The notes under the pieces are model-generated. The model was not told the origin of the DNA. It worked only from the letters and a program-made list of their open reading frames with translations, and did no database searches. A stretch of 64,000 nucleotides of DNA, from the NCBI RefSeq assembly GCF_036365525.1, contig NC_090405.1, positions 49,161,749 through 49,225,748 of the forward strand, in the 5' to 3' direction. Every line of letters starts with the position of its first letter. Within the stretch, counting starts at the first letter, position 1. This stretch comes from Heterodontus francisci (lineage: Eukaryota). Made by a program: the position numbers and the translations under genes. Of the stretch, positions 6,733-61,339 are shown one piece after another.

Positions 6733-7065
6733 TTTAATTCATTCTCGGGATGCAAGCATCACTGGCAAGCCCAGCATTCATTACCCATCTCTAATTGCCC
6801 TTGAGAGCGTGGTGGTGAGTTGCCTTCTTGGCAACTGAGTGACTTGTTAAGCTATTTCAGAATACAGTTGAGTCAACCACATTGCTACGGGTCTGGAGTT
6901 ACGTATAGGTCAGACCAGGCAAGGATGGCAGATTCCCTTCCTTAAAGGGCATTAGTGAACCTGATGGGTTTTTACAACAATCCAGTAGTTTCACTGTCAC
7001 CATTACTGATACTGGCTTTTTAATTCTAGATTTATTTAATTAATCGAATTTAAATTCCCAGCTGC
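6733..7065 (-). mobile_element. SINE related to the 8470 element (core plus LINE-derived tail, head truncated)
   Basis: Reverse complement matches about 8555-8765 (core) joined to about 11615-11708 (tail) of the LINE at 8470. Confidence 0.8.
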
Positions 7066-7240
7066 CATGGTTGACTCTTAATTGCCCTCTGAAATGGCTA
7101 AGCAAGCCACTCAATTGTAACAAAAACCACTACAACAACTGCAACATTTCTAGAACCACCACCATCTCAAGTGCAATTAGGGATAGGCAATAAATGCTGG
7201 CCTGGCCAGCAATGCCCACATCCCACGAATGAATAATAAA
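7066..7240 (+). mobile_element. 5'-truncated copy of the same SINE family
   Basis: ggttgactcttaattgccctctgaaatggc...ccactcaattgtaac...ccaccatctcaagtgcaattagggataggcaataaatgctggcc...cccacatcccacgaatgaat. Confidence 0.8.
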
Positions 7241-8078
7241 AAGTAAACTTGTCACTCGAATACTCAACGGCCAGTGATAATGCAGCAGCCCAACAAGCTT
7301 AACATAAGTAATGTCCACTACAAATGTGAGCACTGTCAATTATAAAAGAAGAATTTCAACAGAAAGTGCATGCAAATGAGAGAATTTTAGAATATTAACA
7401 CATATCTTTTCTTCTTTGGCCTCCTTGTCTCGAGAGACAATGGGTAAGCGCCTAGAGGTGGTCAGTGGTATGTAAAATGTTCCTGTAATCTAGTCTGCAC
7501 TATTTTAATAAGAAAAACTTGCAGTAATGTTGTTGCATGGGAAGCGTTTCTACGAAGAACTGTGCAGAGAAAGAGTACAGAAGTGTATCGGTTATTGTCC
7601 CAAACTGGCAACCCAGAAACCATGAACTGAATTCAATAAATTTGGGGTTTGTAGGGTAGAACCAAAATAAAAAGTGACCATGAAAGCTACCAGATTGTCA
7701 TAAAAACTCATCTGATTTACTAGTGTCCTTTAGAAATATGAATCTGTCACCCTACCCAGTCTAGCCTTCGCGTGACACCAGTCCCACACCACACAGTTAA
7801 TTCTGAAAACCCTCCGAAGTGGCTGAGCAAGTGTCAATTGCGACACAATTGCTTCAGGAAAAAGACCCACCTACCACCTTTTCAGGGCAACTAGGAACAA
7901 ACATTAAGTGAAGCCTGGCCAATGAACCATATCCCAAGAAAAAAAATAGAATAAATGATCCTGGAGTGTTCCAAAAACAGTCACAAGCTTGCACTGAATC
8001 AGTGACTGCTTTAACTTAATGCTTGAGGAAGCATTACAATCCTGCAGTGCTCAGTACTTCAAAGTACTCACTTCAGTT

Positions 8079-8469: not shown

Positions 8470-11400
8470 GGGGAGGCGGTGGCATAGTGGTATTGTCACT
8501 GGAGTAGTAACCCAGAGTATTGCTCTGGGGACATGGGTTCAAATCCCACCAGAAGGTGGAATTTGAATTCAATTAATAAATCTAGTCTAATGATGGTCAT
8601 GAAACCATTGTCGAATGTTGTAAAAACCCATCTGGTTCACGAATGTCCTTCAGGGAAGGAAATCTGCTGTCCTTACCTGGTCTGGCCTACATGTTACTCC
8701 AGATCCACAGCAATGTGCTTGACTCTTACATGCCCTCTGAAATGGCCTAGCATGCCACTCAGTTGTATCTAACCGCTACAAAGTCAATAAAAAGGAATGA
8801 AACCGGACGGACCACCCGGCATCAACCCAGAAACGACAACGGCAAACCCAGCCCTGTCGACCCTGCAAAGTCCTCCTTACTAACATCTGGGGGCTTGTGC
8901 CAAAGTTGGGAGAGCTGTCCCACAGACTAGCCAAGCAACAGCGTGACACAGTCATACTCACGGAATCATACCTTACAGACAATGTCCCAGACACTGCCAT
9001 CACCATCCCTGGGTATGTCCTGCCCCACCGGCAGGACAGACGCACCAGAGGTGGTGGCACAGTGGTATACAGTCAGGAGGAAGTTGCCCTGGGAGTCCTC
9101 AACATCGACTCTGGACCCCATGAAGATCAAACATGGACAAGGAAACCTCCTGCTGCTTACCACCTACCGCCCTCCCTCAGCTGATATGTCAGTACTCCTC
9201 CATGTTAAACAGCTCTTGGAGGAAGCACAGAGGGTGGCGAGGGCACAAAATGTACTCTGGGTTGAGGACTCCAAAGTCCATCACCAAGAGTGGCTCGGTA
9301 GCACCACTACTGACCGAGCTGGCCAAGTCCTAAAGGATATATCTGCTAGACTGGGTATGTGGCAGGTGGTGAGGCAACCAACAAGAGGGGAAAACATACT
9401 TGACCTCATCCTCACCAATCTGCCTGCCTCAGATGCATCTGTCCATGACAGTATTGGTAGAAATGACCGTCGCACAGTGCTTGTGCAGACGAAGTCCCGC
9501 TTTCACATTGAGGATACCCTCTATCGTGTTGTGTGGCGCTACCACCGTGCTAAATGGGATAGATTTTGAATGGATCTAGCAATGCAAAACTGGGCATACA
9601 TGAGGCGCTGTGGGCCATCAGCAGCAGCAGAACTGTACTCAACCACAATCTGTAACCTCATGGTCTGGCATATCCCCCACTCTACAATTACCATCAAGCC
9701 AGGAGACCAACCCTGGTTCAATGAAGTGCAGGAGGGCATGCCAGGAGCAGCACCAGGCATACCTCAAAATGAGGTGTCAACCTGGTGAAGCTACAACACA
9801 GGACTATCTGCGGGCCAAACTGCGTAAGCAGCATGTGACAGACAGAGCTAAGCGACCCCATAACCAACGGATCAGATCGAATCTCTGCAATCCTGCCACA
9901 TCCAGCCGTGAATGGTGGTGGACAATTAAACAACTAACTGGGAGGAGGTGGCTCCACAAATATCCCCATCCTCAATGATGGGGGAGCCCAGCACATCAGT
10001 GTGAAAGATAAGGCTGAAGCATTTGCAACAGTCTTCAGCCAGAAGTGCCGAGTTGATGATCCATCTCGGCCTCCCCCTGAAGTCCCCAGCATCACAGATG
10101 CCAGACTTCAGCCAATTCGATTCACTCCGCGTGATATCAAGAAACAACTGAAGGCACTGGATACTGCAAAAGCTATGGGCCCTGACAATATTCCGGCAAT
10201 AGTACTGAAAACCTGTGCTCCAGAACTTGCCGCACCCCTAGCCAAGCTGTTCCAGTACAGCTACAACACTGGCATCTACCTTGCAATGTGGAAAATTGTC
10301 AAGGTATGTCCTGTACACAAAATGCAGGACAAGTCCAACCCGGCCAATTACCACCCCATCAGCCTACTCTCAATCATCAGTAAAATGATGGAAGGTGTCA
10401 TCAACAGTGCCAACAAGCAGCACTTGCTTAGCAATAACATGCTCAGTGACGCTCAGTTAGGGTTCCGCCAGGGCCACTCAGCTCCTGACCTCATTACAGC
10501 CTTGGTTCAAACATGGACAAAAGAGCTGAACTCAAGAGGTGAGGTGAGAGTGACTGCCTTTGACATCAAAGCAGCATTTGACCGAGTATGGCATTAAGGA
10601 GCCCTAGCAAAACTGAGGTCAATGGGAATCAGGGGGAAAACCCTCCGCTGGCTGGAATCATAACTAGCGCAAAGGAAGATGGTTGTGGCTGTTGGAGGTC
10701 AATCACCTGAGCTCCAGGACATCACTGCAGGAGTTCCTCAGGGTAGTGTCCTAGGCCCAACCATCTTCAGCTGCTTCATCAATGACCTTCCTTCAATCAT
10801 TAGGTCAGAAGTGGGGATGTTTGCTGATGATTGCACAATGTTCAGCACCGTTCGTGACTCCTCAGATATTGAAGCAGTCCGTGTAGAAATGCAGCAAGAC
10901 CTGGACAATATCCAGGCTTGGGCTATAAGTGGCAAGTAACATTTGTGCCACACAAGTGCCAGGCAATGACCATCTCCAACAAGAGAGAATCTAACCATCT
11001 CCCCTTGACACTCAATGGCATTACCATCGCTGAATCCCCCACTATCAACATCCTAGGGGCTACCATTGACCAGAAACTGAACTAGAGTAGCCATATAAAT
11101 ACTGTGGCTACAAGAGCAGGTCACAGGCTAGGAATCCTGAGGCGAGTAACTCACCTCCTGACTCCCCAAAGCCTGTCCACCATCTACAAGGCACAAGTCA
11201 GGAGTGTGATGGAATACTCTTCACTTGCCTGGATGGGTGTAGCTCCAACAACATTCAAGAAGCTCGACACGATCCAGGACAAAGCAGCCCGCTTGATTGG
11301 CACCCCATCTACAAACTTTCACTCCCTGCACCACCGACGCACAGTGGCAGCAGTGCGTACCATTTATAAGATGCACTGCAGCAATGCACCAAGGCTCCTT

Positions 11401-11708
11401 CGACAGCACATTCCAAACTTGCGACCTCTACCAACTAGAAGGACAAGGGCAGCAAATGCATGGGAACACCATCACCTGCAAGTTCCCCTCCAAGTCACAC
11501 ACCATCCTGACTTGGAACTATATCGCCGTTCCTTCACCACCGTTGGGTCAAAATCCTGGAACTCCCTTCCTAACAGCACTGTGGGTGTACCTTCCCCAAA
11601 TGGACTGCAGCAGTTCAAGAAGGTAACTCACCACCACCTTCTCAAGGGCAATTAGGGATGGGCAATAAATGTTGGCCTGGCCTGCGATGCCCACATCCCA
11701 TGAATGAA
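8470..11708 (+). mobile_element. Near full-length CR1-group LINE (AP endonuclease plus RT, no ORF1) with a tRNA-derived SINE head; inactivated copy
   Basis: A box TGGCATAGTGG 8480-8490; B box GGTTCAAATCC 8536-8546. APE motifs (LLTNIWGL, ILTES, RGGG, YRPP, PTRGENILDL). RT motifs (KAMGPDNI, NYHPISLL, FDIKAAFD, GVPQGSVLGP, FADD) and WNSLP, then a short 3' tail. Several stops and frameshifts. Confidence 0.92.
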
Positions 11709-12239
11709 TTTTTAAAAAACATATGTTTACTTCTCAGTGGTAAGATTAAAAGCGACTTGGAAGAATCCTCTCTTGCTCTTGTTGGTGCAAGACCCGAGAC
11801 AACAACAATCATTCAAGAGGGAGAGAGGGGAGTTTGAAAAGGTGGGGGGGGAGTCAGGAGCAGTGAGACCAGGACACAGCAGACCAAAGGGTGGCGTAAG
11901 AACAATGGAGAAATAAGAAAATGAATGAAATAGGGGAGAAAGGAGAGAGAATGAGATCACAATTGAATATTGGACAGTACAAGAGAAAAGTGTGAAAAAC
12001 ATCGACGGATTGACGACGAGAGAAAGACAGATGACAAATCTGAGCTATTCATCTATGCCTCCTAATTATGTAATAGCAGATGCCTGAAGCAGCCTCCATC
12101 TCTGCAGAATCATGTTGCACACAAAAAATTAAAATCACTGAAAAATATATTCTTTTTAAAAACTCAAATGGAGAGAAGCTGGCTTACTTGTTATTGTTGG
12201 CATCTTTCCATCTATGAAATATGATGGACATGCAGCAAA

Positions 12240-13520
12240 CAATCCATTTTGGTGGACTGTCTTATCTTGGTGAAACTTTGCTCATGGTTGTGAAGGCCAT
12301 TCCTTGAGAGACAGGTTTTGCCACCAGTGCCATACATGAAGCTGCCAACTAACACTGAGAGTTATTGTTTTCGGCGTTGGCACCTGTTGCCAAGCTGCTG
12401 TCGGCACTAGTTATCATGGTAGTACACACCAGTAAGGCTTCCGCTGCTATGTCCAGACTGGCCAAGAGAGTGTGGGAAAATGGCGCACTGACACGGAACA
12501 CAAAAGTCCGAGTGTATCAGGCCTGTGTCCTCAGTACCTTGCTCTACGGCAGCGAGGCCTGGACAACGTATGCCAGCCAAGAGCGACGTCTCAATTCATT
12601 CCATCTTCGCTGCCTTCGGAGAATACTTGGCATCAGGTGGCAGGACTATATCTCCAACACAGAAGTCCTTGAAGCGGCCAACACCCCCAGCTTATACACA
12701 CTACTGAGTCAGCGGCGCTTGAGATGGCTTGGCCATGTGAGCCGCATGGAAGATGGCAGGATCCCCAAAGACACATTGTACAGCGAGTTCGCCACTGGTA
12801 TCAGACCCACCGGCCGTCCATGTCTCCGTTATAAAGACGTCTGCAAACGCGACATGAAATCGTGTGACATTGATCACAAGTCGTGGGAGTCAGTTGCCAG
12901 CATTCGCCAGAGCTGGCGGGCAGCCATAAAGACAGGGCTAAATTGTGGCGAGTCGAAGAGACTTAGTAGTTGGCAGGAAAAAAGACAGAGGCGCAAGGGG
13001 AGAGCCAACTGTGCAACAGCCCCAACAAACAAATTTCTCTGCAGCACCTGTGGAAGAGCCTGTCACTCCAGAATTGGCCTTTATAGCCACTCCAGGCGCT
13101 GCTTCACAAACCACTGACCACCTCCAGGCGCGTATCCATTGTCTCTCGAGATAAGGAGGCCCAAAAGAAGAAAAAAAGAAAGAACACACCAGTCCACAGG
13201 ATGTGTCGCCATTTCTCTCTTTCACCAGCTAGTGACTCCCACGTTTAGGGTTTTCATGTTACACTTGCAAGCATCCTTGAAGCAGAGCTTGGGCACCCCA
13301 CCGGTTGTCTGATGCCGGATACCTCACCATACAGAAGGTCCCTGGGCATGCAACCGTCTTCTATCCTGCGGATGTGTCCAATCCACCAAAGCCGCTTCTG
13401 TTTGAAGAGTGCCAACACACTATGCAGCTCTGCCTTTGAGATTTTGTCCTGCCAGGATATACCCATAATGCGGCGCCGACAGTGAAGATGGAAATTATCT
13501 ACAAGCTGGCTCGCTTGGAG
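12240..13520 (-). mobile_element. Older RTE-clade fragment split by the RTE at 12434
   Basis: Minus ORF piece (NFHLHCRRRIMGISWQDKI, RLWWIGHIRRIEDG, DLLYGE). Sequence is continuous across the younger insertion and matches the plus-strand copy at 27184-27730. Confidence 0.75.
12434..13183 (+). mobile_element. RTE-clade LINE, 5'-truncated, young; 10-bp TSD
   Basis: Uninterrupted ORF C-terminus (YQACVLSTLLYGSEAW, RLRWLGHVSRM, CSTCGRACHSRIGLYSH). TSD acacaccagt at 12424-12433 and 13184-13193. Confidence 0.92.
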
Positions 13521-14074: not shown

Positions 14075-15490
14075 GAGTCATTTTGCAGCTCAGAAGGAAG
14101 CCATTCAGCCCATCGAGTCCATGCCAGCTCTCCACAGAGCTATTCATTCAGTCTCACTCTTCCGCTCGATCCCCGTAGCCCTGCAAGTTTATTTCCTTGA
14201 AATGGCCATCCATTGATTCAAGTCTTTGATTGTCTCCGTTTCTACCACCCTGTGGACAACGGGTTCCAGGTCATTATTGCCTACTGCTTAAAAAGGTTCT
14301 TCCTCATGTTGCCCCTGCATCTCTTGCCCAAAACCTTGAATCCATGTCACTTAGTCCTTGAACCATTAGTTAATGGGAACAGTTTTTCCTTGGTTAACTT
14401 ATCTAAGCCTGTCATAATCTTGTACACTTCTGTTAAATCTCTCCTCAATCTCCTTTGTTCTAAGGAGAACAAACCCAATTTTTCCAACCTAAACCTTATA
14501 ACTAAAATCCCTCATCCCCGGAATCATTCTGGTAAATCTCCTCTGCGCCCTCTCAAGGACCCTTGCATCTTTCCTAAAGTGTGGAGACCAGAACTAGACG
14601 CAATACTCCAGTTGGGGCCTAACTAGAGTTTTTATAAAGGTTCAGCATAACTTCCCTGCTTTTGTACTCAATGCTTCTATTTATGAATCCCAAGATCCCA
14701 TGTGCTTTACTAACCACTCTCTCAATATGTCCTGCTATCCTCAAAGATCAATGCACATGAACCCCCAAGTCCTTCTGCTCCTGCACACTCTTTAGAACTG
14801 TGCCATTAAATATATATTGCCTCTCTCTATTTCTTCTGTCAAATTGCATCACCTCACACTTGCAGGTATTAAATTCCATTTGTCACCTTTTTGTCCAGTC
14901 TGCTCATCTTTGTCCTGTTGCAGGCAGTTCATATCATTAACTCTGTTCGCCACACCTCCAAAAGTGGTGTCATCAGCAAATCTTGAGATTCTATTCTTTA
15001 TTCCAAGATCCAAGTCATTTATATATAGAAAAATAAGCAGTGTTCCCAGCAGTGACCCTTGGGACACACCACTGTCTACCATCCTCCAGTCTGGAAAACA
15101 ACCATTTACTACAACTCGCTGTTTTCTGCCCTGAAGCCAATTTTTTATCCAAGCTGACACTAACCCTCCTATTCCATGAGCCTCAATTTTGTTAATCGGT
15201 CTTTTATGTGGTAGTTTATCAAATGCTTTCTTAAAATCTATATAAACAGCATCCACTATATTCCCTTCATCAACTTTCTCTGTTACTTCATCAAAAAAAA
15301 TCAATTAGATTAGTCAAGAGGATCTGCCTTTTGTAAATCCATGCTGGCTGTCCTTTATTAAATCAAAACTCTTCAAGTGCATGTTGATTTTTTTTCTCTG
15401 ATTATTGTTTCTAAAACCTTACCCACCACTGATGTTAAACTAACTGGCCTGTAGTTGCTATGGCTGTCCTTACACCCTTTCTTGAGTGAA
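14075..15490 (-). mobile_element. CR1-group LINE fragment
   Basis: Minus-strand RT motifs (YIDFKKAFD, GVSQGSLLG, FADD) followed by the ORF2 C-terminus and tail. Confidence 0.88.
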
Positions 15491-18412: not shown

Positions 18413-18741
18413 GCGGCACAGTGGCGCAGTGGTTAGCACCGCAGCCTCACAGCTCCAGGGACCCGGGTTCAATTCTGGGTACTGCCTGTGCGGAGTTTGC
18501 AAGTTCTCCCTGTGACCGCGTGGGTTTCCGCCGGGTGCCCCAGTTTCCTTCCACAGCCAAAGACTTGCAGGTTGATAGGTAAATTGGCCACTGTAAATTG
18601 CCTCTAGTGTAGGTAGGTAGGTGGGGATGTGGTAGGGAATATGGGATTAATGTAGAATTAGTATAAATGGGTGGTTGTTGGTCGGCACAGACTCGGTGGG
18701 TCGAAGGGCCTGTTTCAGTGTTGTACCTCTCTATGACTCTG
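18413..18741 (+). mobile_element. V-SINE (HE1-type)
   Basis: tRNA-like head (TGGCGCAGTGG...GGTTCAATTC), V-domain-like gtgggtttccgccgggtgcccc...tttccttccac, and a CR1-like tail gaagggcctgtttcagtg. Confidence 0.88.
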
Positions 18742-21529: not shown

Positions 21530-21900
21530 AATTCCTGGGACATGGGCCTCACTGGTGAGGTTGGCATCCATGCATTCATCATCCATCAATAGTTACCTTG
21601 ATAAGGTGGTGGTGGGCCACTTTGGAGAGCGGTTAAGAATCATCTACATTGGTGTAGGACAGGAGTCACATATAGGCCAGACCTGGCAAGTGTGGCAGAT
21701 TTCCAGGCCAAAATGACTTTAGAGAACCAGTTGGGCTTTTATGACAATTTGACAGCTTTAATCACATACTTTTCATTTCCAGAATTTTTTTTATTATAAC
21801 TTAAAATTCGCATACCGGCATGATGGGATTCAAACTCTCATTCTCCAGATTATTGGCCCAGGCCTCAGGATTACTCATCAAGTAACATACCACTACATAC
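21530..21900 (-). mobile_element. Degenerate SINE of the 8470/38040 family
   Basis: Core ggagtcacatataggccagacc...ggcagatttcc, head remnant gggattcaaactc...actac, and tail remnant ccttgataaggtggtggtg. Confidence 0.6.
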
Positions 21901-22478
21901 CGTAGCTCTATCCAATGACTCCGGTTGGTAAATCCAATTAAGTGGACAATAGCCTACTTTTATATATAGTGGCATGGCAAAATGATAAAAAGCACTTCAC
22001 AAGAAAATGGGAATAAATCCAAAAAGCATGCAGCAATAGAGAAAACTTTTAATAGGATTCTGCACATGGGAGAAGATAGAGCCAAGCAGATGAGTTTGTG
22101 GAGAGCTGGAGCATGACAGCAAAAGGCTTTGGCATCAATATGGTACAAAAGGATGGAAGCATGGAACTGTCAACAGAAGGGAGCGTATGCACGATTGGAT
22201 GAAGGCCTGGGGGAGGCTGCAGAGAGCAGAGCTAGGGAAGGACTTGACGTAAAAATAATGAGGTCCATGCTGATGTAAGGTACAGATCATGGGCTATAAT
22301 GCAGCTCACAAAATCACCTACCGATGCTCGCCATCAAGGCTGGCACATGAAGTCCAGTCACTTGACCAAAGCAGCCAGCAAGAGGAACACATGACTTTGG
22401 ACCTATCATTACCTGGTCATGACGGTTTCGCTGTTTGTGGGAGCTTACAGTGTGCAAATTGACTGCTGTGTTCCCTGT

Positions 22479-22834
22479 GGGGCGGCACAGTGGCGCAGTG
22501 GTTAGCACCGCAGCCTCACAGCTCCAGCGACCCGGGTTCAATTCTGGGTACTGCCTGTGTGGAGTTTGCAAGTTCTCCCTGTGTCTGCGTGGGTTTCCTC
22601 CGGGTGCTCCTGTTTCCTCCCACATGCCAAAGACTTGCAGGTTGATAGGTTAATTGGCCATTATAAATTGCCCCTAGTATAGGTAGGTGGTAGGGAAATA
22701 TAGGAACAGGTGGGGATGTGGTAGGAATATGGAATTAGTGTAGGATTAGTATAAATGGGTGGTTGTTGGTTGGCACAGACTCGGTGGGCCTAAGGGCCTG
22801 TTTCAGTGCTGTATCTCTAAACTAAACTAAACAA
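22479..22834 (+). mobile_element. V-SINE (HE1-type), full length, inserted in a DeuSINE tail
   Basis: A and B boxes, V domain, (taaac)n tail. The DeuSINE sequence gtgcaaattgactgctgtgttcc resumes after it as ttacaac...gactgcacttc. Confidence 0.9.
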
Positions 22835-23267
22835 ACCTTACAACTTTGACTGCACTTCCAAGGTACTTGATTTGGCCACAGACTCGGTGGGCCTAAGGGC
22901 CTGTTTCAGTGCTGTATCTCTAAACTAAACTAAACAAACCTTACAACTTTGACTGCACTTCCAAGGTACTTGATTTGGCTGTAAAGCACTTTTGGACGTC
23001 CTGAGGTCAAGAAAGGCACTGGATAAATGCAAGACTCTTTTTTTTACCCAAAGCTCTCCATCGCTGGGAGATTTATCACTTCATGCCTGTATCTGTTGTA
23101 GACTAATAGTAGAGATTGATTGCTATGATTGGTCAACAACTCTGTTATGGTTGCAAAGTTCAACAAAGGAAGCTTGTTAAGAAGCTGGAAGCCCATGGAA
23201 TTATGTGAAAAGAAGTGTTATTGATACAGAATTGGCTCAGTGACAGGAAGCAGAGGTGTTTTTTATT

Positions 23268-23584
23268 GATTTAGAGATACAGCACTGAAACAGGCCCTTC
23301 GGCCCACCGAGTCTGTGCCAACCAACAACCACCCATTTATACTAATCCTACATTAATCCCCTATTTCCTACCACATCCCCACCATTCTCCTACCACCTAC
23401 ACTAGCGGCAATTTACAATGGCCAAATTACCCATCAACCGTGCAAGTCTTTGGCTGTGGGAGGAAACCGGAGCACCCGGAGGAAACCCACGCGGTCACAG
23501 GGAGAACTTGCAAACTCCGCACAGGCAGTGCCCAGAACCGAACCCGGGTTGCTCGAGCTGTGAGGCTGCGGTGCTAACCACTGC
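23268..23584 (-). mobile_element. V-SINE (HE1-type)
   Basis: Reverse complement of the 22479 copy, with variant positions. Confidence 0.9.
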
Positions 23585-23949: not shown

Positions 23950-24183
23950 CTTAGAATTGCCGCTACCCGCCGGGCTCTTGCCTTTGCCCCCGTACGAGGA
24001 TCCTGAGCTGCCGCTGCCCGATCGCTCCCGTTCATCGCCTGCAGGCCCCATTTTCTGCCCGGGCCTGTCCCGGGGCTCGGCGCCGGCTCCGGGCTGCCGC
24101 TGCCCGCTCCGCTCACGCCCGTCGCCGCCACCTAGAAAAGCCGGCGCAAACTCCCTCCGCCTGCTCCTCGACTCCTTGGACAT
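23950..24183 (-). CDS. SCAPER: First coding exon (78 codons, MSKESRSRRREFAPAFLG...GNSK), probably SCAPER
   Basis: ATG with A at -3 (aaaATGtcc) inside a CpG island; phase-0 donor AAG|gtgcgg at 23950/23949. Gene identity is inferred only from head-to-head position with RCN2 and PSTPIP1; no recognisable downstream SCAPER exon was found in the window. Confidence 0.6.
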
Positions 24184-24620
24184 TTTCTCTCGCTTTAATA
24201 TTACATCGATTTTTTTTTTTGTGGTGGGAATAAATAGAAATATTCCTCGTTTCTTTATTAAAATTGCCTCAGTTTAATGACAACAAAACAGCGGTCGGCT
24301 CATTGACAGCCGCGCAACCAAACTCGACGCCGGAAACATCCCCGCCCCGAGTGCTGACTGACAACCGCATCGACCAGCCGCGTCCGCCATCCGGCGCCGA
24401 TCCCGCCCATCGGGCCCAATCAGCCCCGCCCACTATAGGGCGGGGCTTAAACTGGGCAAGCAGGTTCGGTTGCAGTGGCGCTGTCAAGCAACGCAGCAAA
24501 CAGAGGCCGCTCTCTGATTGGTCGGATCGGGGTTCCCCTACCCGGCGGGCCTTGCGGGCCGACCCACTCAAATTGGAGGCGGGAAAGCGAGGACTGGACA
24601 TAGGGAGAGGGGTGGCAATG
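24184..24620 (-). promoter_or_regulatory. CpG-island promoter and 5' UTR of the minus-strand gene
   Basis: High CpG density in an otherwise CpG-poor window; several GC boxes (ccgccc, gggcgggg), CCAAT boxes (cccaatcag ~24414, ctgattgg ~24514) and an ETS core ccggaa ~24330. Confidence 0.8.
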
Positions 24621-25138
24621 TGTGAAGGAAGGTGGAACCAATATGATGGTCTTTCAGCATTTGTGAGCTTAAAATAGAAACAAAACCAGGGTATTCTGAA
24701 AATGTACCGCAACATAGCTAACACTTGTAAAAAAAAAAATAAATGCCAATCTATTTTTATATGCTGATTAACCTGTTGGGTATTTCTATTTTGTTTCAAA
24801 TTTCCAGGTTATATCGATAAAGTTGGATGGAATACAAATAACACCAAGCTGACCCTTAGGAGCAAGTTGAGGGTTTATAAGGCCTGTGTTCTTAGGACCT
24901 TGTTGTATGGTTGTGAAACATGGGTGACTTTATAGAATCGTAGAAAGTTTAAGGCACAGCCCATTGTGTTTGTGCCAGCCGAAAAAAGATCCACCTATCG
25001 TAATCCCACCTTCCAGCATTTGGTCTGTTACCCTGCAGATTACAGCATTTGAGGCACATATCCAGACTCCTTTTGAATGAGTTGAGGCTCTCTGCCCTTT
25101 CAGGCAGTGAGTTCCAGATTTCCTCATCTCCCCTCTGT

Positions 25139-25497
25139 GGGCGGCATAGTGGCGCAGTGGTTAGCACTGCAGCCTCACAGCTCCAGCGACTCGGGTTCAA
25201 TTCTGGGTACTGCCTGTGTGGAGTTTGCAAGTTCTCCCTGTGTTTGCGTGGGTTTCCTCCGGGTGCTCCGGTTTCCTCCCACATGCCAAAGACTTGCAGG
25301 TTGATAGGTAAATTGGCCATTATCAATTGCCCCTAGTGTAGGTAGGTGGTAGGGAAATATAGGGACAGGTGGGGATGTGGTAGGAATATGGGATTAGTGT
25401 AGCATTAGTATAAATGGGTGGTACATGGTCGGCACAGACTCGGTGGGCTGAAGGGCCTGTTTCAGTGCTGTATCTCTAAACTAAAAAACTAAACTAA
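25139..25497 (+). mobile_element. V-SINE (HE1-type), full length
   Basis: Nearly identical to the 22479 copy. Confidence 0.9.
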
Positions 25498-26521
25498 TTT
25501 TTCTACCAATCACTTTAAATCTATGTATGCCCCCTCGTCAATGACCTCTCTGCTAAGGTGAACAGACCCTTCGCTGCCACTCTATCCAGGCCCCTCAAAA
25601 TTTTGTACATTTCAATCAGATCTCCCCTCAGCCTTCTCTGTTCCAAGGAGAACAACCCCAGCCTATCCAATCTTTCCTCATAGCTGTATTTTTCCAGTCC
25701 TGGTCACATCCTTGTAAATCTCCTCTGTACCCTCTCCAGTGCAATTACATCCTTTCTGTAATGAGGTGAACAGAACTGCACATAGTACTCAAGTTGTGGC
25801 CTAACTAATGAGTTATACAGTTCCAGTATAACCTCCCTGCTCTTATATTCTATACTTAGTCTAATAAAGGAAAGGATTTCATATGCCTTCTTAACCACCT
25901 TATCAACCTGTCCTGCTACCTTTAGGGATCTGTGGACATTCACTTCAAAAGGTCCCTCACGTCCTCTACACTTCTCAGTATTTTCCCATTAATCGTGTAT
26001 TCCTTTGCCTTGTTTGACCTCCCCAATTGCATCACCTCACACTTCTCCAGATTGAATTCCATTTGCCACATTTCTGCCCATTGGTCCAGACAATCAATAT
26101 CTTCCTACAGCTATCCTCCTTGCTATCTACCACACGAACAATCTTTGTTTTGTCTGCAAACTTCTTGATCATGCCCCCTACATTAACGTCCAAATCGTTA
26201 ATATACACCACAAAAAGCAGGGGACCCAGTACAGAGCCCTGCAGAACGTCACTGGAAACAGCCCTCCAGTCACTAAAACAGCTGTCAACAATTACCCTTT
26301 GTTTCCTGCCACTGAGCCAATTTTGTATCCATCTTGCTGCATTTCCCTGGATCCATGGGATTTTATTTTTTTAACGAGTCTGTCATGTGGGACCTTGTCA
26401 AAAACCTTGCTAAAATCCATGGAAACCACATCAACTGCACTACCCTCATCGATCTTCCTTGTTACTTCTTCAAAAAATTCGATCAAGTTAGTCAAACAAG
26501 ATCTTCCCTTAACAAATCCAT

Positions 26522-31100: not shown

Positions 31101-33473
31101 GTAAGATGGAGAGATTGGGGGACTGGGCAGTCACCTCAAATCCCCAACTCAGGGAGGATGCAGTGCCGCCTCTGTAAATACTAGTGAAAGGGAATTCCCC
31201 CGGAGAGGAGGGAGGGGAAGCTACAGGATGATGGGTTTGGTGGTGAACAGCTGTGAAACCCCCATATTGCACAAGAAACGGTTTTTGCTTTTAAACGTTA
31301 TTTTGCCTTAAAAATAGATTTTCCGTTAAGTTTTAAAAAAATTCTATTTTGCCCTGTTAACATTTTTCAATTTTGTCTAAAAAAAAAACTTTAAAAAAAA
31401 ATTAATTGTAATTTTTCTCAAATTAAGTTTCCTTTTTTTTTTCTATATAAACAGTTAAAATGCTGTGCCAATTCCTACTATAACATTTCATACAGAGCTG
31501 AAATCTAATCTTCAGGATCAGATTCCTGTTACTGAACCAGTTGATTATTGTATTGTAACTGCTAATGGATGTTCATCTTGTGCAGGTACAGTGCCAAACA
31601 TATTGTACTGTAGGAAATTAGCTACAGAGCTAACAATGTCTATGAAATAAAGAATATATGTACAGTGTTTATACTTGTACAGAACACTAATCGGTTCGTA
31701 CTAACAATTGTGAGTGGGAAAATGTTGCCTTTTCACCACGGTCTGTTCTGCAGTTGTCAGTAAATGTGCCTCAGGATTCAGTGGTCAGAAATTGGAACAG
31801 ATTTCCACATGGTGAAACAAAGCATTTACCTAAAACTGTTTAATACATGCTTTAATGAAAGTAAGCGTCTGGCAGTAAGCTACTGTGCATCTAAATTTCT
31901 TCTTCCAATAAATATTTTGAGCTTGTATGTGTTTTTGAGAATAAAAATTACTCAGCAGTCTGCCTCAAAGCAATAATCTCTGCTAAGGCACATTGATAAA
32001 TGAAAGCTGTGTCATGAGAAACAATAAATTATATAATTTATTAACACAAGTGAACAGGGACTAATAAATTTCCAACAATGTACACATAAGTATAGTTATG
32101 TCATGGCTAAGATGTTTAAAAAAAAATCATAATCTTCTGCCTCTCATCATGTGTTCTATTCATGAGAATTATTTTTCTGTTTTTCTTTTGGCGGTAAGCA
32201 ATGATTTGTGTAGTTTTCAATAGGACGTTCTAGCAGAACTATGTGCATCTGTAAAACTGACAGCTAAAATTTAGGCTTCTCGCCAAAATATTTTGTTGGT
32301 GCCCCAGAACAAAAAGTAAGCTATCACAGGAAGTTGTTGCTTTTTTTTAACTCAAAATTTGACCTGAGCTTATAGTTTTACAAATAGCAATGATGGGATG
32401 GGGTGGGGAGCAATCAATCCTTATAAATCTTTATACCATTGAAGTATACACCATGTTAATCTCTCTAAACCAGAAAACAGCATGTTGAATCATGTAGTAC
32501 AGAAGGAGGCCGTTTGTCCTAGATAGTTGAGGATTAGCATTACTAATTAAGTTTATTGTAAGAAGTAAAACTGTGCAAAGGTAAGTACAAAATCAGCAGA
32601 TAAAATAACATACACTACACCATCTGTTCTGCAAAAGTTTCAAATTCTTAGCCATTCTCTTCACTAACTTGGAAAAACTGTGGCATGTGAACCTCACAGA
32701 TGTTCTTCTAGCAGCACAGCAAAATATGTAACTGAGGAACATAGGGGATTAAATTCCATTATAATTGCTTTGCTTTGTTGTATAATCCAGTATAAAGTTT
32801 GAAATGAGTATCCCACCCGAATAATCTGAAACTGTCATGCTTTAAAATATTTACTGCAGTGCAAAATCAGATGAAAAAAGCAGATGTGACTAAACTGAAC
32901 AACTGCTGTCTATTCAAATAGGATCTCCCTAAATTAGATCTGAGTTCCAAAGAAATTCCTGTGTACAGTCCTCCGATTCCAATCTTGATGCAAAGTACAG
33001 TTGGTTTTCAACATACAATGCAGGTGTAGATTTCACTTTGCCTGCCAGTGCTTGATCTGAATCAGAGGTGTTCTTAATTGTAGAAGCTATGTTTTACTCT
33101 TCAAACATTGCAGTTACTAAATCAAGCAACAAATTCATGTCAAATACTGTAGAAGTTCCTATAACTTGAAATTGGCCAGCTTTTACAGTCCGTTGGATCT
33201 ACTGGAATTGTGCAGGAACAGCCCAGAGCATCTTGGAGTTTTTGTATTTTTGTAATTGTTGACTCTATTGAGGTTTTTGTAACCCATAACTTGTATTACT
33301 TGGATTTATTCATTTTGTTACTTCTCTGAAGTATTTTGTGAGCCAAGTAGTTAGTGATTTGGTTTTAATAGTAACGATGTTAACTTGCTGAGTATTAGTT
33401 TTGAATGTGCTGTAGATTTTCTTGATTGCTGCAGACTGTGCTTTATGCCACTACCAATTTAGGCAGTGTTATG

Positions 33474-33991
33474 ACTACATCTCCAACACAGTAGTCCTCG
33501 AGGCAGCCAACATCCCCAGCTTATACACACTACTGAGTCAGCGGCGCTTGAGATGGCTTGGCCATGTGAGCCGCATGGAAGATGGCAGGATCCCCAAAGA
33601 CACATTGTACAGCGAGCTCGCCACTGTTATCAGACCCACCGGCTGTCCATGTCTCCGCTTTAAAGACGTCTGCAAACGCGACATGAAGTCCTGTGACATT
33701 GATCACAAGTCGTGGGGGTCAGTTGCCAGCGATCGCCAGAGTTGGCGGGCAGCCATAAAGGCAGGGCTAAAGTGTGGCGAGTTGAAGAGACTTAGCAGTT
33801 GGCAGGAAAAAAGACAGAAGCGCAAGGGGAGAGCCAACTGCGTAACAGCCCCAACAACCAATTTTTTCTGCAGCACCTGTGGAAGAGTCTGTCACTGTAG
33901 TATTGGCCATTATAGCCACTCCAGGCGCTGCTCCACTAACCACCCCCAGGCGCTTACCCATTGTCTCCCGAGACAAGGAGGCCAAAGAAGA
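33474..33991 (+). mobile_element. RTE-clade LINE 3' end flanked by an 80-bp direct repeat
   Basis: Same family as 12434 and 56483. Direct repeats at 33394-33473 and 33992-34071. Confidence 0.92.
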
Positions 33992-34204
33992 ATTAGTTTT
34001 GAATGTGCTGTAGATTTTCTTGATTGCTGCAGACTGTGCTTTATGCCTCTACCAATTTAGGCAGTGTTATGGCTTTTCAGTTTTGACAGACTAGCCCTGA
34101 AAGCAGGCTGTCAAGTCACCCTGTCCCCTTGACCATGGATAGTGTGTGACTCAGAAAGACGCAACTTGGGGAACGGGAGAGGTGAACATAAAAAGAAGCT
34201 GTGC

Positions 34205-36309: not shown

Positions 36310-37731
36310 ATAGTAAAAGGATTTAAAACATAGAAGCTAAGATCATTGAAGGGCAAGACCTGAAAAATTGACCACCTTTTCTGAATTTAATGATTAACAG
36401 CTATAGATGGGAACAAATTCTAATCACAGGCTAATCACAGAGGTTCTTTTAACTTTGTGATGCCTTAGATTGTGGCATGCAATGCATTTGTTTCATCTGT
36501 TTGGCTTGCATAGGGCAATCAATGGGGAATTAAAATATGTATTTTTGCATATGGCACAGTTGTTCAATGAGAAAACCCCCTATCTGATGTCATCTTTAAG
36601 ATTTTAGTAAATATCTGATTGGTTTTCACCAAAATAGAGAGAGATGTCACATTGCAACATAAAACATAATAAATAACCACACAGTGGATAGCGTACATTA
36701 GTGTGATGGTTGTAGTAAAAATCTCACCATGGCTGACTTCAACACTACTCTGAAAGCACCCAATCCCATTTGATCTTGGAAGCTAAGCAGAGTCAGGCTG
36801 GGTTAGAACTTGCCTGGGAGAGCTTTTGAGAATACCAGACGCAATAGGCCACTTTCGTGATCCATGGACACTACAGGCTATAGAGTGTCTCCTAGATGCT
36901 AATATATTTAATTGTTGAGATATTTTTTTCTGTTGCTTCATTAAGCAAGTTAGTTTAATTGGATATTTTTGAGTTTTTTTATTACATTGGAAGTGTCCTA
37001 GGGCACCTGTTGCAATGCTATTGTGTTTGTTTTTGGTGACACTAGGGCACCTCCATGTCACTCCTATTGGTTCAATGAAAAATGGCCCAGGAGAAAGTAA
37101 TAATGCAAGCTGCTGGATTGTTGTGTAAGCCGACTTCTTTCGCTAATACCCTTCAAGAAAGGGAACCTTTCTAAACAGTTTCGTTTACACGCAGTCTCCA
37201 TTGTGCACTATGTGGTTGCCATCTGAAGTGGTGTAGCAAGCCAAGGCAATTAGGAATGGACAATAAATGTGGCTTTGACAGCATTACCCACATTTCTAAA
37301 AAGAAATAAAACAGAAAATAGTCCATTTTAATGGGGCAATTCTGTTGTTTTTATGGTATACTAATCACCAATATTACAATGCTACTGAGCTGCCCAAAAT
37401 AACACGTTCTCTTATGGTAGTGAAACTAATCTAGAATTGCTACAATGGACCAGTTCTGGGTGCTTTCCAATTTCCAATCTGTGTCTAAACAGTTTCTGAG
37501 TTTTACTTTTCTAGACCATATACACAGGTTGGTACTGATAACCAACCTAATGTCAACCCCCCAGTCTGATGAAAGGTACATGTGTCTGGTATGAAGTACA
37601 GGTATACAAGTTATTTGCATACCACATGGGCTTTTGAGAGGACTTCATTCTTGCCTCCATTCCTAGATAGAGGATTAGTGAGAGTTTTGCCCACCATAAG
37701 CTATTTGTGTGATGTTCATTTTATTTCCCAG

Positions 37732-38035: not shown

Positions 38036-38414
38036 TTCGTTCATGGGATGTGGGCGTCGCTGGCTAGGCCAGCATTTAGTGCCCATCCCTATTTGGCCTT
38101 GAACTGAGTAGCCATTTCAGAGGGCAGTTTAAGAGTCAACCACATTGCTGTGGATCTGGAGTCACATGTAGGCCAGACCAGGTAAGGATGGTAGATTTTC
38201 TTCCTTAAAGGACATTCGTGAACCAGATGGGTTTTTACAACAATCGGCAATGGCTTCACGGTCACACTCGACTAGCTTTTTTAATTCCAGATTTATTAGT
38301 TGAATTCAAATTTCACCATCTGCCGTGGTGGGATTCGAACCCATGTCCCCAGAGCATTAGCCTGGGCCTCTGGGATACCAGTCCAGTGACATTACCGCTA
38401 CGCCACTGTCTCCC
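38036..38414 (-). mobile_element. Full-length tRNA-headed SINE made of the head/core and the tail of the 8470 LINE
   Basis: Minus strand reads gggagacagTGGCGTAGCGG...GGTTCGAATCC...core...ctcagtt|caaggccaaatagggatgggcactaaatgctggcc...cccacatcccatgaa. Confidence 0.9.
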
Positions 38415-43171: not shown

Positions 43172-43380
43172 TTCTTTCATTGGATGTGAGCATCGCTGGC
43201 TATGCCAGCATTTGCTGTCCATCCCTAATTGCCCTTGAGAAGGTGGTGGTGAGCTGCCTTCTTGAACCGCTGCAGTCCATCTGGTGTAAGTACACCCACA
43301 GTGCTGTTAGGAAGGGAGTTCCAGGTTTTTAACCCAGCAACAGTGAAGGAATGGAGATACCTTTTCAAGGATGATGTGTG
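43172..43380 (-). mobile_element. 3' end of a LINE of the 8470 family
   Basis: Reverse complement of about 11500-11708. Confidence 0.85.
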
Positions 43381-44003
43381 ATTCGCTTAATTGCTATTTT
43401 ATAATTTCTCACTTTACTATTCCTTTTTGATATTGATAGTGTCCTGAACTCTGGTTCCTTTCACCTTAATTGAAATGCAAATTAGGGCAGTGTGTTATGA
43501 AGAACATAGGCTGGAACCTTTAGTTCCTTGAAATTATTAGTTCCCAATCACAGGCACGATGTTTTAGAAAAGCACTGTAAAGGCCGGTCTTTACCTCATA
43601 GGGAGAAAGAAAGGAAAATCAGATGGCGAATCCCTGTGCACTGTTGTCTATCACCCAGTTATGAGGCTTAAGCAAAAATTGGGACAATGGACCACACTCC
43701 ATTCCCCAGTGAGTAGGTACATAGGCATCTGGTTGGCTGTCCAAAACTGGAGCTGATTAGTATCATCAGAAGGGTATAATCAACTCTCCAGATTTCTTAA
43801 CATGTCTGATTATAGTACCAAGCCATGTATGCCAGGAAAACTTTGAGCATGAAATTAACCTTCTCAATTCCCCTTTCCCCCAAAAAACAAGATGTGAACA
43901 GTTCACAGTATGCAATCCTTAGACTCTGCAAGCACATGGCTGGTTAGGAGTTATCTAATGTGAGCATTTTGTAGCTAAGAATGTTTCCAACTCTTGCAAA
44001 TAG

Positions 44004-44146: not shown

Positions 44147-44499
44147 GTAATGCTGTGTTTAAATATTAAGCCTATGCCAATAGTAGGATTAGTCATTGAA
44201 AACCTGTTAAATTTTTACATGCTAGAAAAGCTTTTAAGTTTGTGCAATTTGTGCGTGTGTACTTACAGTACAGAATCTACCACTGTCACTAATTGTCACC
44301 ATTTCACAGGAGGTGTCACAGGATGGATGGTGTAGGTAATTAAAACATTATATGTAACACTGCTTTTCTGCAGTTGGGCTGAAACACATTGTTGGAAGAC
44401 TAGGGGGAGCCTTGCTCTGCATCTAATGCTGGCATACTTTACCTGGGAGTATGTGATCTGACACTGGATGCCTGAGATGAAAGTGTGTTCTGTTTCATA

Positions 44500-47480
44500 T
44501 GAACATACGAATTAGGAGCAGAAGTAGGCCATTTGGCCCCTCTAGCTTGCTTTGAAGGGTGACCCCTAATTTTAAAACAGTGCCCCCTAGTTCTGGACTT
44601 ACCCGCAAGAGGCAACATCCTTTCCACATCCACCTGGTCATGACCGTTCAGGATCTTATAAACTTCAGTCAAGTCACCCCCCACTCTTATAAACTCCAGT
44701 GAAAACAAGCCCAATCTGTGCAACCTTTCCTCATAAGACAACTCGCTCATTCCAGGTATCAGTCTAGTAAACCTCCTATGAACTGCCTCCGACACGTTTA
44801 CATCCTTCGTTAAATGAGGAGACCAAAACTGCACACAGTATTCGAGATGTGGTCCCACCAATGGCCTGTATAACTGAAGCATAACATCCTTACTTTTATT
44901 TTCAATTCCTGCCTTCTTTATGACTTGTTGTACCTGCATACTAACTTTTTGTGACTCATGCACTAGAACACCTAGATCCCTCTGCACCTTGGAATTCTGC
45001 AGTCATTCTAGGTTTAAGAAATACTCTTTTTTTTAATCTTCCTGCCAAAGTGAACAACTTCACATTTTGCCACATTATACTCAATCTGCCAGATTTTTGC
45101 CCACTCACTCAACCTATCTATATCGGTCTGCAACCTCCTTATGTCCTCATCACAACATACCTTCCTACCTATCTTTGTGTCATCTGCAAATTTAGCTACC
45201 AAGCCATCACTCCCTTCATCTAAGTCATTGATATAAATTGTAAAAAGTTGAGGCCCCAGCACAGACCCCTGAGGGACTCCGCTCGTCACATCCTGCCAAA
45301 CAGAAAAGGACCCATTTATGCATACTCTCTGTTTTCTGCCAGCCAGCCAATCTTCTATCCATGCTAATATGTTACCCCCTGCACCATGAGTTCCTACTTT
45401 GCGCAATAACCTTTTATGTGGCACCCTGTCAAATGCCTTCTGGAAATCCAAGTACAGTACGTCAATGGGCACCCCTTTATCCCCAGCGCATGTTACTCCT
45501 TCAGAGAACTCCAATAAATTGGTTAAACATGATTTCCCTTGCTCAAAACCATGCTGATTATTCCCGATTACCTTGAGTTTTTGTAAGTGCCCAGCTAGAG
45601 CCTCCTTAATGATCGATTCTAAACCCTTGCCCACGACAGACGTCAAGCTAAATGTCCTACAGTTACCTGTGTACTGCCTCCCCCACTTCTTGAATAGAGG
45701 GGTTTAATATGCTACTTTCCAGTCTGATGGAACCTTTCCAGAATCTAGCAAACTTTGAAAAATTAACAGCAACGCATTACTACCTCATTAACCACCTCTT
45801 TTAAGACCCTAGGATGAAGCCTATCAGGACTCGGGGACTTGTCAGCCTGCAGCTCCATCAGTTTCCTTATTATCTACCATTAACTCCCCATTCTCACTCT
45901 TTTCCTTTTTAAGTACCTGTTGAAACTCTTGCTATCTGTTTTTACATTTCTAGCTAGCTTCCTCTCATACTCTAATTTCTTTCTCCTGATTAACCTTTTA
46001 GTCATTCTCTGCCGTTCTTTATATTCTGACCAATCATCTGACCTGCCACTAATCTTTGCTCAATTATATGCTTTTTCCTTAAGTTTGATGCTTTCCTTAA
46101 CTTCTTTAGTTAACCACAGATGGTGGGTCCTCCCCGTAGTGTTCTTCTTTATCATAGGAATATACGTATCCAGAGTATTCTGAAATAACCCCTTAAACGT
46201 CTGTCACTGCTTCTCTATTGATCTATCTGCTAGCCTAGTAACCCAGTTCACTTCAGCTAGCTCAGCTTTCAAGTGCACATAGTTGCCCTTATTTACATTT
46301 AAAATACTAGTCTTAGACCCACTCTTCTCTCTTTCAAACTGGATGTAAAATTCAATCATATTGTGGTCGCTGCTACCTAGGGTGCCTTTAGTCTGAGGTC
46401 ATTAATTAATCCTGTCACATTACACAATACCAAGTCCAATATAACCTGCTCTCTGGTTAGTTCCAGAACGTGCTGCTCTAAGAAACTATCTTGAAAGCGT
46501 TCTATGAACTTCTCATCCAGGCTACTATTGCCAATCTGATCTTTCCAGTTTATATGTAGTTTAAAATCATGCATGATTATTGCTGTCCCTTTCTCACAAG
46601 CACCCAATACTACTTCTTGGATACTTAATCCTACATTATGGTTACTGTTAGGTGGGGGGGCTATAGACCACTCCCACTAGTGACATCTTTCCCCTACTAT
46701 TCCTCAACTCCACCCAAACCGATTCTACATCCTGATCTCCTGAACCAGGGTCATCTCCAACTATTGCACCAATGCTATCCTTGATTAACAGTGCTACCCC
46801 TCCACCTTTACCTAGCTTCCTATTCTTCTTGAATGTCATACACCCTTCAATATTCAGGACCCAATCCTTTTCATCCTGCAGCCACATCTTCGTAACGCCT
46901 ATCAGATCATATTTATTTACTTCACTGTGCGCTGTCAGTTCGTCTGCATTGTTATGCATTCTACATGTAATCAGATGCAGAGCCTTTAGTTTTGTCTTTT
47001 TGTTGTCTTTGTAACATCTTGTCTCGACTGTTGGTGTGTTCTTAGGTTTTTCTCTCTGTCCCTTCCTGCCATTCTCTGACCTTCATTTCCCATATTACCT
47101 TTCTACTCTCCTGCCTTGACTCTGCTGCTTGATTTGTTACATCTACCCAGGCTTGATCCTTCACCCCCTCCCCCCCCACTTGTTTAGTTTAAAGCCTTCT
47201 CTACTTCCCTAGTTATACGGTTTGCTAGAACACTGGTCCCAGCACAGTTCAGGGGCAGACCAGCCCAATGGTACAGCCTCCACTTTCCCCAGTACTGGTG
47301 CCAGTGCCCCACTAGCTGAAACCCACTTCTCCCACACCAGTCTTTGAGCCTTGTATTCATTTCACTAATCTTATGTGTCCACTGTCAATTGGTACGTGGC
47401 TCAGGTAATAATCCAGAGATTATTACCCTTGAGGTTCTGCTCTTCAATTTGGTGCCTAGCTCCTCATACTGTCAAAGCAG
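44500..47480 (-). mobile_element. CR1 LINE with ORF1 esterase remnant and a deleted, decayed ORF2, antisense in the last RCN2 intron
   Basis: 47180-47480 translates to an SGNH-like ORF1 end (KLKSRTSRVIISGLLP...WCGRSGF...HW). APE motifs (KGGGVAL, VESVWVEL, VVYSPP) and RT motifs (YLDFQKAFD, GVPQGSVLGP, FADD). Confidence 0.9.
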
Positions 47481-55464: not shown

Positions 55465-55595
55465 AATCTATGGGTGTACCTACACCACATGGACTGCAGC
55501 GGTTCAAGAAGGCGGCTCACCACTGCCTTCTCGAGGGCAATTAGGGATAGGCAATAAATGCTGGCCTAGCCAGCGACACCCACATCCCGTGAGAG
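55465..55595 (+). mobile_element. 3' end of a LINE of the 8470 family
   Basis: Matches about 11578-11700. Confidence 0.85.
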
Positions 55596-59230: not shown

Positions 59231-61339
59231 ACTTCAACTTTATTACTTGTAATAACAAATGCAGGTTTAGGAAAAAAATGTATCAGCAGTTACAAGTGAA
59301 ATTGGCTTCTTTTGGTTAATAAAGTTATGGTTGAACTGAAAGTCCCATTGAGTTTAGATGGCAGTGCGTGTGTTCTAAACCTACTTTATCAGATACAGAG
59401 CAATGAAAGAGAAACCTATTACTGTGGTAATACTACTTAGATTGCGAGTGTAAGGAGTTAATTCAATAGGCTTTTAAAAGAATTTGATAACTTCAGTCCA
59501 CATAAACTGAGAAAAAAAGATTTTTCATACCAAATGGAAATACATTCATTGCCCACATGAGGGCAGCTGTTTGCGTAGACCATAGTCGCAGCTGATGCTA
59601 ATGTTATGAGGAAGGGTAACAAGACCAGAAATGTTATCCCTACCTTCCTCTCTGTGCAGATGCTGTCTGACCTGCCGAGTGTTTCCATCATTTTCTGTTT
59701 TATTTGTGTTTGTAGAAATGGAGAGCCTTCGTTAAGTGCAAATTCTAACCTAACATTCTAACCTTTCAGAAAGAATGTTAAACCGGAATCTGTCTGTAAA
59801 AGATCAAAATGGCAAAATCTGGGAGAGAAAAAGTGGGTAGTTCTGTTATTCTAGCCAACATTCCGTTTCAATCACATAATCAAAAACAACAACTTACATT
59901 TATATAATGTCTTTAATGAAACATCCCAAAATGCTTCACAGGAATTTTAGCAAACAAAAGTTGACACCAAGCCACATGGAGATATTAGGGCAGGTGACCA
60001 ACAGCTTAGAGAAAGAGTTCAAAAGAAAGAGAGGCTTGAATTTATATAGTGTTTCCATGACCTTAAGATGTCCCAAAGTGTTTTACCACTAATTTTATAC
60101 TTTATTTGAAGTGCTGTCACTGTTGTGATGCAGGAAAGTTTTAAGAAGCATCTTAAAGCGGGGGGGGGGGGGGGGGGGGAGGTAGGGGAGCAGAGAGGTT
60201 TAAGGAGGGAATTCTAAAACTTTGGGCAATAACTGACATTTATCTGACATTTGTGGGTCTCTACTGTGTGAAAATTAGCTGTCATATATGCCTATTTAAA
60301 ACAGACTACACTCAAAAACAATTTCCTGGTTGTAAAGTGTTAAAGAAATGAAAGGTGCTATATAAAAGCTGGTTCTTTCTTGTTCTCTGTACCATCTCGT
60401 TTTTTAACTGACTAGTCAATAATTAAGTTATGACTCCATGTAGAAATGATGTTACTTGCATTGGACTGCAGGCCAGGCTTCCTGTTTAAAAACAGAAAAT
60501 CAACATGTGCCAAATGTTTAAGCTCAATTCAGTCACTTCTAGTTCTAAAATCAGCAGCTCTGAATTTTTTTTTGTTGCAAACACCCCTGCAGCAGTTAGT
60601 ACAAGCACAAGCTGCTCTGGTTAAGAGTGGGTGTGAAATGGAGAGAAGACTTGCAACACAATGAAAGGCTTTCGGAAAATTTTATTCATGATATGTGGAT
60701 GACACTGGCAAGGTTGTATTTATTGCCAATCTCTAGTTGTACTGAAAAGATAGTGGTTGGCCTTGGCCTTGAACCACTGCCATAACTGTGTTGGGGAAGG
60801 AATTTCAGGATGTTGATCCAGCGATGATGAAGGAACTGCACTATATGTCCAAGTCAAGATGGTGTTTAATTGTGCTGGGAACTTCAAGAAGGATTTCTAG
60901 TAGCATTGTTGCTCTTGTCCTTCTCAGGGTCGAAAGACACAGGAAAGGATGTTGCCTACCACTTGCCCATCTAAACTCGAGTTATCCAGGTTCTGCTGTG
61001 AGTTGACAAGGGTTGTTTCATTTTTGGAGTAGTTGTGAAGGAGCTGAACACTAGAATAGTCATTGAACAGTCCCACTTGACCTTACAATGAAGGGAAAGT
61101 TCATGATGAAGTAGCTGCAGATGGTTGGGCTGGAGATGCTATCCTGAGAAACTCCTGAGAAAATGTTGTGGGGTTGTAATGATTGGCCTCTGACAATCAG
61201 AGCCATCTTTTGCATCAGATATGACTCCTGCCACTCGAGGTTTTGGTCTTTGGCCCTTATTCACTTCATTTTTGCTGGGGCTCCTTGGTGTATCAAACCC
61301 AATTACTCCCCTGGCATTCACCTCATAGAATGATTTTGT

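Follow-up and report, generated by a model that had tools for sequence, protein, structure and literature searches.

The sense strand of Zenon, an abundant LINE family of sharks and rays, has been depleted of T-runs well beyond anything its base composition would explain, and selection for RNA polymerase III (Pol III) read-through is probably the best explanation. The copy studied here starts at position 8470 of the window, by which we mean the whole 64-kb stretch of Heterodontus francisci DNA that was analysed. The initial annotation had proposed such selection on a protein-coding RNA from the scarcity of T4 runs in this copy. That proposal stands insofar as the depletion exceeds both synonymous shuffles and LINEs that lack a tRNA-derived head; it does not stand on T4 runs by themselves (P ~0.08), nor on the T5 run that adjoins the 3' end, which is tail decay.

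A Zenon LINE with a tRNA-derived head

The element belongs to the elasmobranch Zenon family, of which it is a dead copy (Table 1); a first guess that placed it in the HE1/HER1 pair was dropped. A DNA search of its own genome gave 3642 candidates; 40 of them were scored and 39 loci fetched, 22 of which are near full length. Near-full-length copies yield a majority sequence of 3289 nt with a single frame of 975 codons for an endonuclease (EN) and a reverse transcriptase (RT). In the copy at 8470 this frame is broken by five indels plus stops, and the 926-aa frame of copy L018 is matched by Pfam RVT_1, Exo_endo_phos and Exo_endo_phos_2. Only ~310 nt precede the frame and full-length copies begin at the head, leaving no ORF1. 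In an RT tree of 46 rows, which has weak deep support and includes no named Zenon reference, the element groups with P0002-P0008, apart from the CR1 elements of the same genome.

ARAGORN called a tRNA-Thr(AGT) on the head in three of four young copies tested; on the decayed head at 8470 it made no call, and an Rfam search of that head did not recognise it either. The 5' end is sharp, with 27 of 39 copies that had been picked by protein match, and not by their head, starting within its first 8 nt. Of 54 young copies, 28 share one form of the A box and 13 more have CpG-decay forms of it; the B box is canonical in 31 and found in CpG-decay forms in another 16. The body that follows the head was also recognised by eye in six published elasmobranch Zenon consensuses, and the A tail measures ~9-10 nt in most of the 63 young copies that reach it. 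Pol III likely transcribed the source copies of Zenon from the two boxes in the head.

Inspected by eye, the 39 full-length copies showed no clear target-site duplications, and the base preceding the 5' end is A more often than any other. Sets of copies that share a 5' truncation point or their flanks (L110, L113 and L114; L111 and L112) suggest segmental duplications.

Table 1. Positions of the Zenon copy, its parts and the other repeats in the window
Feature	Position	Strand	Basis or remark
Decayed Zenon LINE copy	8470-11719	+	one T4 run, short A tail
tRNA-derived head, element 5' end	8470..8551	+	ARAGORN on young copies; sharp 5' starts
Pol III A box	8480..8490	+	10 nt past 5' end; sequence
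Pol III B box	8536..8546	+	CpG-decayed in this copy; sequence
Conserved non-coding body, common to partner SINEs	8552..8765	+	terminal hairpin 8743-8757, 7-nt loop
Single APE endonuclease and reverse transcriptase frame	8751..11655	+	no ORF1
AUG out of frame (+1) with EN-RT	8797..8799	+	majority alignment
Sole internal T4	9564..9567	+	post-insertion CpG decay, also makes a stop codon
3' tail, common to SINEs	11656..11709	+	AATAAA at 11664-11669
A tail of ~10 nt, first bases now T (T5A6)	11709..11719	+	comparison of 63 copy tails
Partner SINE, Zenon head and body joined directly to Zenon tail	38036..38414	-	sequence comparison
Additional SINE copies, and Zenon-family copies that are truncated or very old	6738-7233, 7693-7831, 21615-21896, 43172-43381, 55468-55592, 60760-61290
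Second, young tRNA-derived SINE family	18413-18730, 22473-22835, 25131-25497	+
Second, young tRNA-derived SINE family	23258-23584	-
RTE-type LINE family	56483-59232	+	1095-codon majority frame; no tRNA head seen
RTE-type LINE family	12434-13171, 33473-33992
CR1-type LINE fragments	44439-45772, 14870-15483, 25985-26352	-	first is of the control family

T-runs are missing from the sense strand

A recount of the copy at 8470 agrees with the annotation that 8470-11708 holds one T4 run, and the proposed origin of that run, a TTT-CGA decayed to the stop TTT-TGA, is borne out by the C being kept in 20 of 23 aligned copies. Across 84 aligned stretches from young copies, T4 is most frequent at this very site (7/84). 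Base shuffles of this copy give 4.95 T4 runs for the one observed (P 0.038, modest alone) and 23.7 TTT for the 10 observed (0/5000). Sense-strand runs of four or more A number 15 and not 14, as first counted, against 15.5 in the shuffles. Enrichment in A-runs is thus rejected, and the contrast between A and T in this copy reflects a loss of T-runs rather than a gain of A-runs.

The T5 at 11709-11713 is present as described, and other family tails indeed lack it: among 63 young copies a single T precedes the A run in 39, and four or more T do so in only 8. We therefore rejected the T5 as an encoded terminator; it is decay of the tail. It fits the growth of T from A described for the short ageing A tails of rodent and bat SINEs (PMC8466645).

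The family majority contains no T4 over its 3289 nt, where several would have counted against the annotation. Set against synonymous-codon shuffles, which already preserve its T-poor codon usage, the ORF majority has 4 TTT where 12.8 are expected (0/2000; P<0.0005); its lack of T4, with 2.07 expected, is a weak result (P ~0.08). The shortest mammalian Pol III terminators are TTTT and TVTTT (PMC8466645), and the two motifs together number 0 against 4.06 in the shuffles (P 0.0065). The loss extends across codon boundaries: all 27 TTN codons lack a T directly before them, and of the 124 codons that start with T only 5 have one there. At third positions away from other T, T still stands at 21%. 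Runs of A, C and G are at expected levels, and the antisense strand of the ORF majority holds 14 T4 runs, so that the loss is confined to the sense strand. Plain TT is depleted as well (ratio 0.79). The amino acid content follows the same direction: Phe makes up 1.8% of the element's protein against 2.7-7.4% among the 120 homologues listed, conserved Phe being retained (10 of 15 columns) and non-conserved Phe numbering 5 against 12-34. T4 runs are too rare to carry the claim alone; the signal comes from TTT, from TVTTT and from T|T junctions between codons.

LINEs without the tRNA head keep their T-runs

A trivial account would be that LINE sense strands are A-rich and T-poor by composition or codon usage, as the annotation itself had cautioned, or that the element avoids its own endonuclease target. 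Indeed, T makes up only 19.7% of the ORF majority, which lowers the T4 expectation to 2.1, and a GC-rich headless relative (L236) also has no T4 over 1.4 kb. The TTT ratio of that relative is normal, so that absence of T4 alone is a weak signal. Yet shuffles that keep codon usage still give the 12.8 TTT quoted above, and the caution itself fails against an RTE of near-identical composition, whose 3285 nt hold 26 TTT where the 2925 nt of the element's ORF hold 4.

This RTE and a CR1, each a majority built on 20 loci, served as controls from the same genome. The RTE (T 21.0%, GC 51.6%) has 26 TTT with 27.6 expected and 4 T4 with 6.1 expected, together with a mild loss of TT (z -2.6); the CR1 has 31 TTT with 35.8 expected and 12 T4 with 11.5 expected. 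The RTE copy at 56483-59232, said to hold at least four sense T4 runs, has exactly four. More distant controls came from 80 related metagenome loci, 67 of which were kept and 13 dropped for a frame of <450 codons. TTT ratios in these 67 ORFs span 0.78-1.19 against 0.31 in the element, T|T junction ratios span 0.62-1.39 against 0.19, and every one of them has at least 2 terminator-like sites. Regression on T% across the 67 predicts 7.9 TTT per kb, whereas the element has 1.37. No pair of A and B boxes was found upstream of these ORFs, at least 300 nt of upstream sequence being available in 45 of 67. The comparison with headless relatives that the annotation had called for thus did not refute it, since neither the two same-genome families nor the 67 relatives have a matching loss of TTT. 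These controls largely refute an origin in composition or in avoidance of the endonuclease target, to which we give next to no weight; target avoidance moreover leaves the strand bias unexplained, because the antisense strand has its 14 T4 runs.

The nearest headless controls at the DNA level share 25-43% protein identity with the element and come from other hosts, the sample holding no close headless sister. Candidates for such a sister in the element's own genome, 39 loci fetched from a divergent-protein search (47 matches) and 20 loci from a 61-kb fragment search, all turned out to be the same family. A scan of viral contigs found no relative of the element.

The filter acts on source elements

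An older subfamily has the same kind of head, and its majority is likewise free of T4. Between the old and the young majority pN/pS is 0.19, falling to 0.09 when the count is CpG-aware and codons with multiple hits are dropped, against 0.75 for rare changes in the copies. The ORF of the source elements was under purifying selection, and as both subfamilies bear the head, the low value between them means that elements with the head produced the protein and depended on it.

The T-runs themselves behave differently in copies and in lineages. Private synonymous changes to T created a TTT in 38 of 391 cases (9.7%), close to the opportunity of 55 in 542 (10.1%), while only 1 of 47 lineage differences did so (P 0.04). 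Dead copies thus gain TTT freely by mutation and the lineages rarely keep it, which places the filter on the source elements. This bears on a lineage-specific mutational bias, for example RT errors on a U-rich template, that would erode T-runs without any selection on transcription. Such a bias could produce a depletion that is graded across TT, TTT and T4, as observed, with no abrupt step at the length that terminates. However, the dead genomic copies make TTT at the expected rate, third-position T is still 21% away from other T, and slippage would give frameshifts, yet the 975-codon frame is intact. We regard a mutational bias as improbable.

Probable Pol III read-through and a possible Pol II alternative

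How would Pol III transcription select against T-runs? A source copy that gained TTTT or TVTTT would yield a cut-short RNA without the tail that RT binds, and would leave no offspring. Recurrent losses of this kind could purge T-runs, T|T junctions between codons and such Phe codons as the protein can spare. A source copy encodes no terminator and would be transcribed past its short A tail until a T-run in the flank is met, as in SINEs that encode none.

Several observations count against the Pol III reading. T4 by itself is not significant against the synonymous shuffles and is lacking in L236 too, and the headless controls are distant; a TATTT variant of the head, described below, was able to spread; the loss of TT (0.79) exceeds what termination alone needs and is seen in mild form in the RTE; the AATAAA before the A tail also fits Pol II; and the ORF must have been translated, yet Pol III RNAs carry no m7G cap and are as a rule uncapped and non-coding (Kroutter, 2009; PMC2666806). 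It is conceivable, though unlikely, that Pol II makes the source RNA, or that both polymerases do and only the Pol II RNA is translated. The head would then be the captured 5' end of a SINE, and U-runs would be avoided at the RNA level, through premature polyadenylation near 5' AATAAA motifs, U-binding decay factors or nucleases. AATAAA does occur at majority positions 119, 343 and 3244, poly-A ends Zenons in all phyla (PMC13343379), capping would ease translation, and pressures on RNA could account for the surplus loss of TT. In addition, TATTT, a moderate terminator in mammalian assays (PMC8466645), occupies head positions 57-61 in 20 of 54 young copies, a variant that spread nonetheless. 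However, T-runs persist in this genome's presumed Pol II LINEs and in the 67 relatives, on which such pressures bear equally. Both boxes of the head are intact and rightly placed with respect to a sharp 5' end, and the absence of an in-frame AUG is left just as unexplained by Pol II. Read-through by Pol III therefore remains the explanation that we favour.

Translation of the ORF

The first in-frame AUG of the EN and RT frame is codon 284 of the 975-codon majority. Upstream of it lies the AUG at 8797, in the +1 frame, which is ATA in 18 of 23 older copy stretches and missing in 21 of the 23; all six published consensuses have it, in frame as it seems by eye in SquAca_Zenon-2. A -1 frameshift from this AUG was considered and appears unlikely: no canonical slippery site was seen, the downstream fold is no better than shuffles (z -0.1 to -0.6) and the older stretches mostly lack the AUG, although its presence in the six consensuses points the other way.

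As a guess, initiation may be cap-independent and use a codon other than AUG within the body or linker. Precedents for cap-independent translation of an ORF without AUG are the dicistrovirus IGR IRES and the R2 retrotransposons, R2 being a Pol I co-transcript. The hairpin that ends the body carries a loop of 7 nt resembling an anticodon loop, to which a GCT in frame ~26 nt downstream could base-pair (region 8743-8777). Such a pairing would resemble the dicistrovirus IRES; here it is a sequence match of 3-4 bp, with no covariation and with variants at both partners, and mimicry of an anticodon loop is therefore no more than a lead. The junction at which the SINEs leave the element falls between the hairpin loop and the in-frame GCT.

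Taken further, Zenon might be a natural autonomous Pol III retrotransposon, a proposal that we put forward tentatively and at somewhat less than even confidence. It would combine a SINE promoter with a 3.3-kb mRNA, remodelled in both codons and amino acids to escape Pol III stops, be translated without cap or AUG, perhaps by means of the tRNA-anticodon-like hairpin, and give rise to ready-made SINEs by internal deletion. As a working rule, LINEs are taken to be coding RNAs made by Pol II, and SINEs to be non-coding RNAs made by Pol III. If the proposal is true, a shark and ray family with a SINE promoter and a working EN and RT gene breaks this rule. It would also reveal how far a protein-coding sequence can adapt to read-through by Pol III, allow SINEs to arise in one deletion, and provide a natural case of the translation of uncapped RNA.

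Relation to known families

The elasmobranch Zenons of Stuart et al. (2026; PMC13343379), from CarCar, RhiTyp, ScyCan, HypSab and SquAca, are the same family as the element, with a length of ~3.3 kb, no ORF1 and an A tail. Compared by eye over their first 400 letters, the six consensuses from these five sharks and rays have the same head and body and no T4, whereas the hagfish and coelacanth Zenons have T4 runs and no such head. The main text of that study contains 'tRNA', 'polymerase III' and 'start codon' 0 times, as does the supplement text searched for 'tRNA'. Head and T-run loss thus sit in published consensuses and go undescribed in the text searched. Elsewhere in the literature searched, to which most subscription papers and Repbase entries do not belong, we found no description of a tRNA-headed coding LINE, of this head or of a purge of T-runs.

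A close parallel is lepidopteran Zenon with Persaeus, its partner that arose by internal deletion (Wang et al., 2019; PMC6740152), this Zenon being likewise a single-ORF element of the CR1 group with a poly-A tail and short head-plus-tail derivatives. Persaeus is stated to be without tRNA homology or a Pol III promoter (PMC6740152), whereas the derivatives of the present element have the tRNA head. Since the 5' end common to element and derivatives is a tRNA head, these derivatives are SINEs.

The element shares with tRNA-derived SINEs (SINE2; PMC4824008, PMC8466645) a tRNA head with A and B boxes, a conserved body, a LINE tail and the absence of internal T4, and MetaSINE heads are also closest to tRNA-Thr (PMC4824008). 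Unlike SINE2, it carries a 2.9-kb EN and RT frame under purifying selection. SINEs cannot encode a protein (Kojima, 2018; PMC5786205), and the element, although SINE2-like at both ends, is not one of them because it codes (3.3 kb, EN and RT). It has the AATAAA of a T+ SINE but not the encoded TTTT or TVTTT before the A tail, in keeping with the 8 of 63 tails that have four or more T. For the 66-bp Meta-domain of MetaSINE, which is drawn in a figure, look-ups of short motifs in the supplements gave no relevant match.

Partner SINEs and neighbouring sequences

SINEs built of Zenon head, body and tail occur in the flanks of Zenon copies as well as in the window, and the same head-to-tail joints are present in public contigs of three runs, four of the 24 runs listed having been compared. 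The second tRNA-derived SINE family, which presumably is of the HE1/V-SINE type, has no sense-strand T4 in any of its four window copies. The kilobase 24001-25000 is CpG-rich, its 63 CpG being the maximum of the window, and holds overlapping frames of 133-179 codons with no Pfam match. A full-length 5S rRNA match at 36732-36850 on the forward strand (Rfam RF00001, 69 bits) may represent a gene or pseudogene, or else a SINE3 head.
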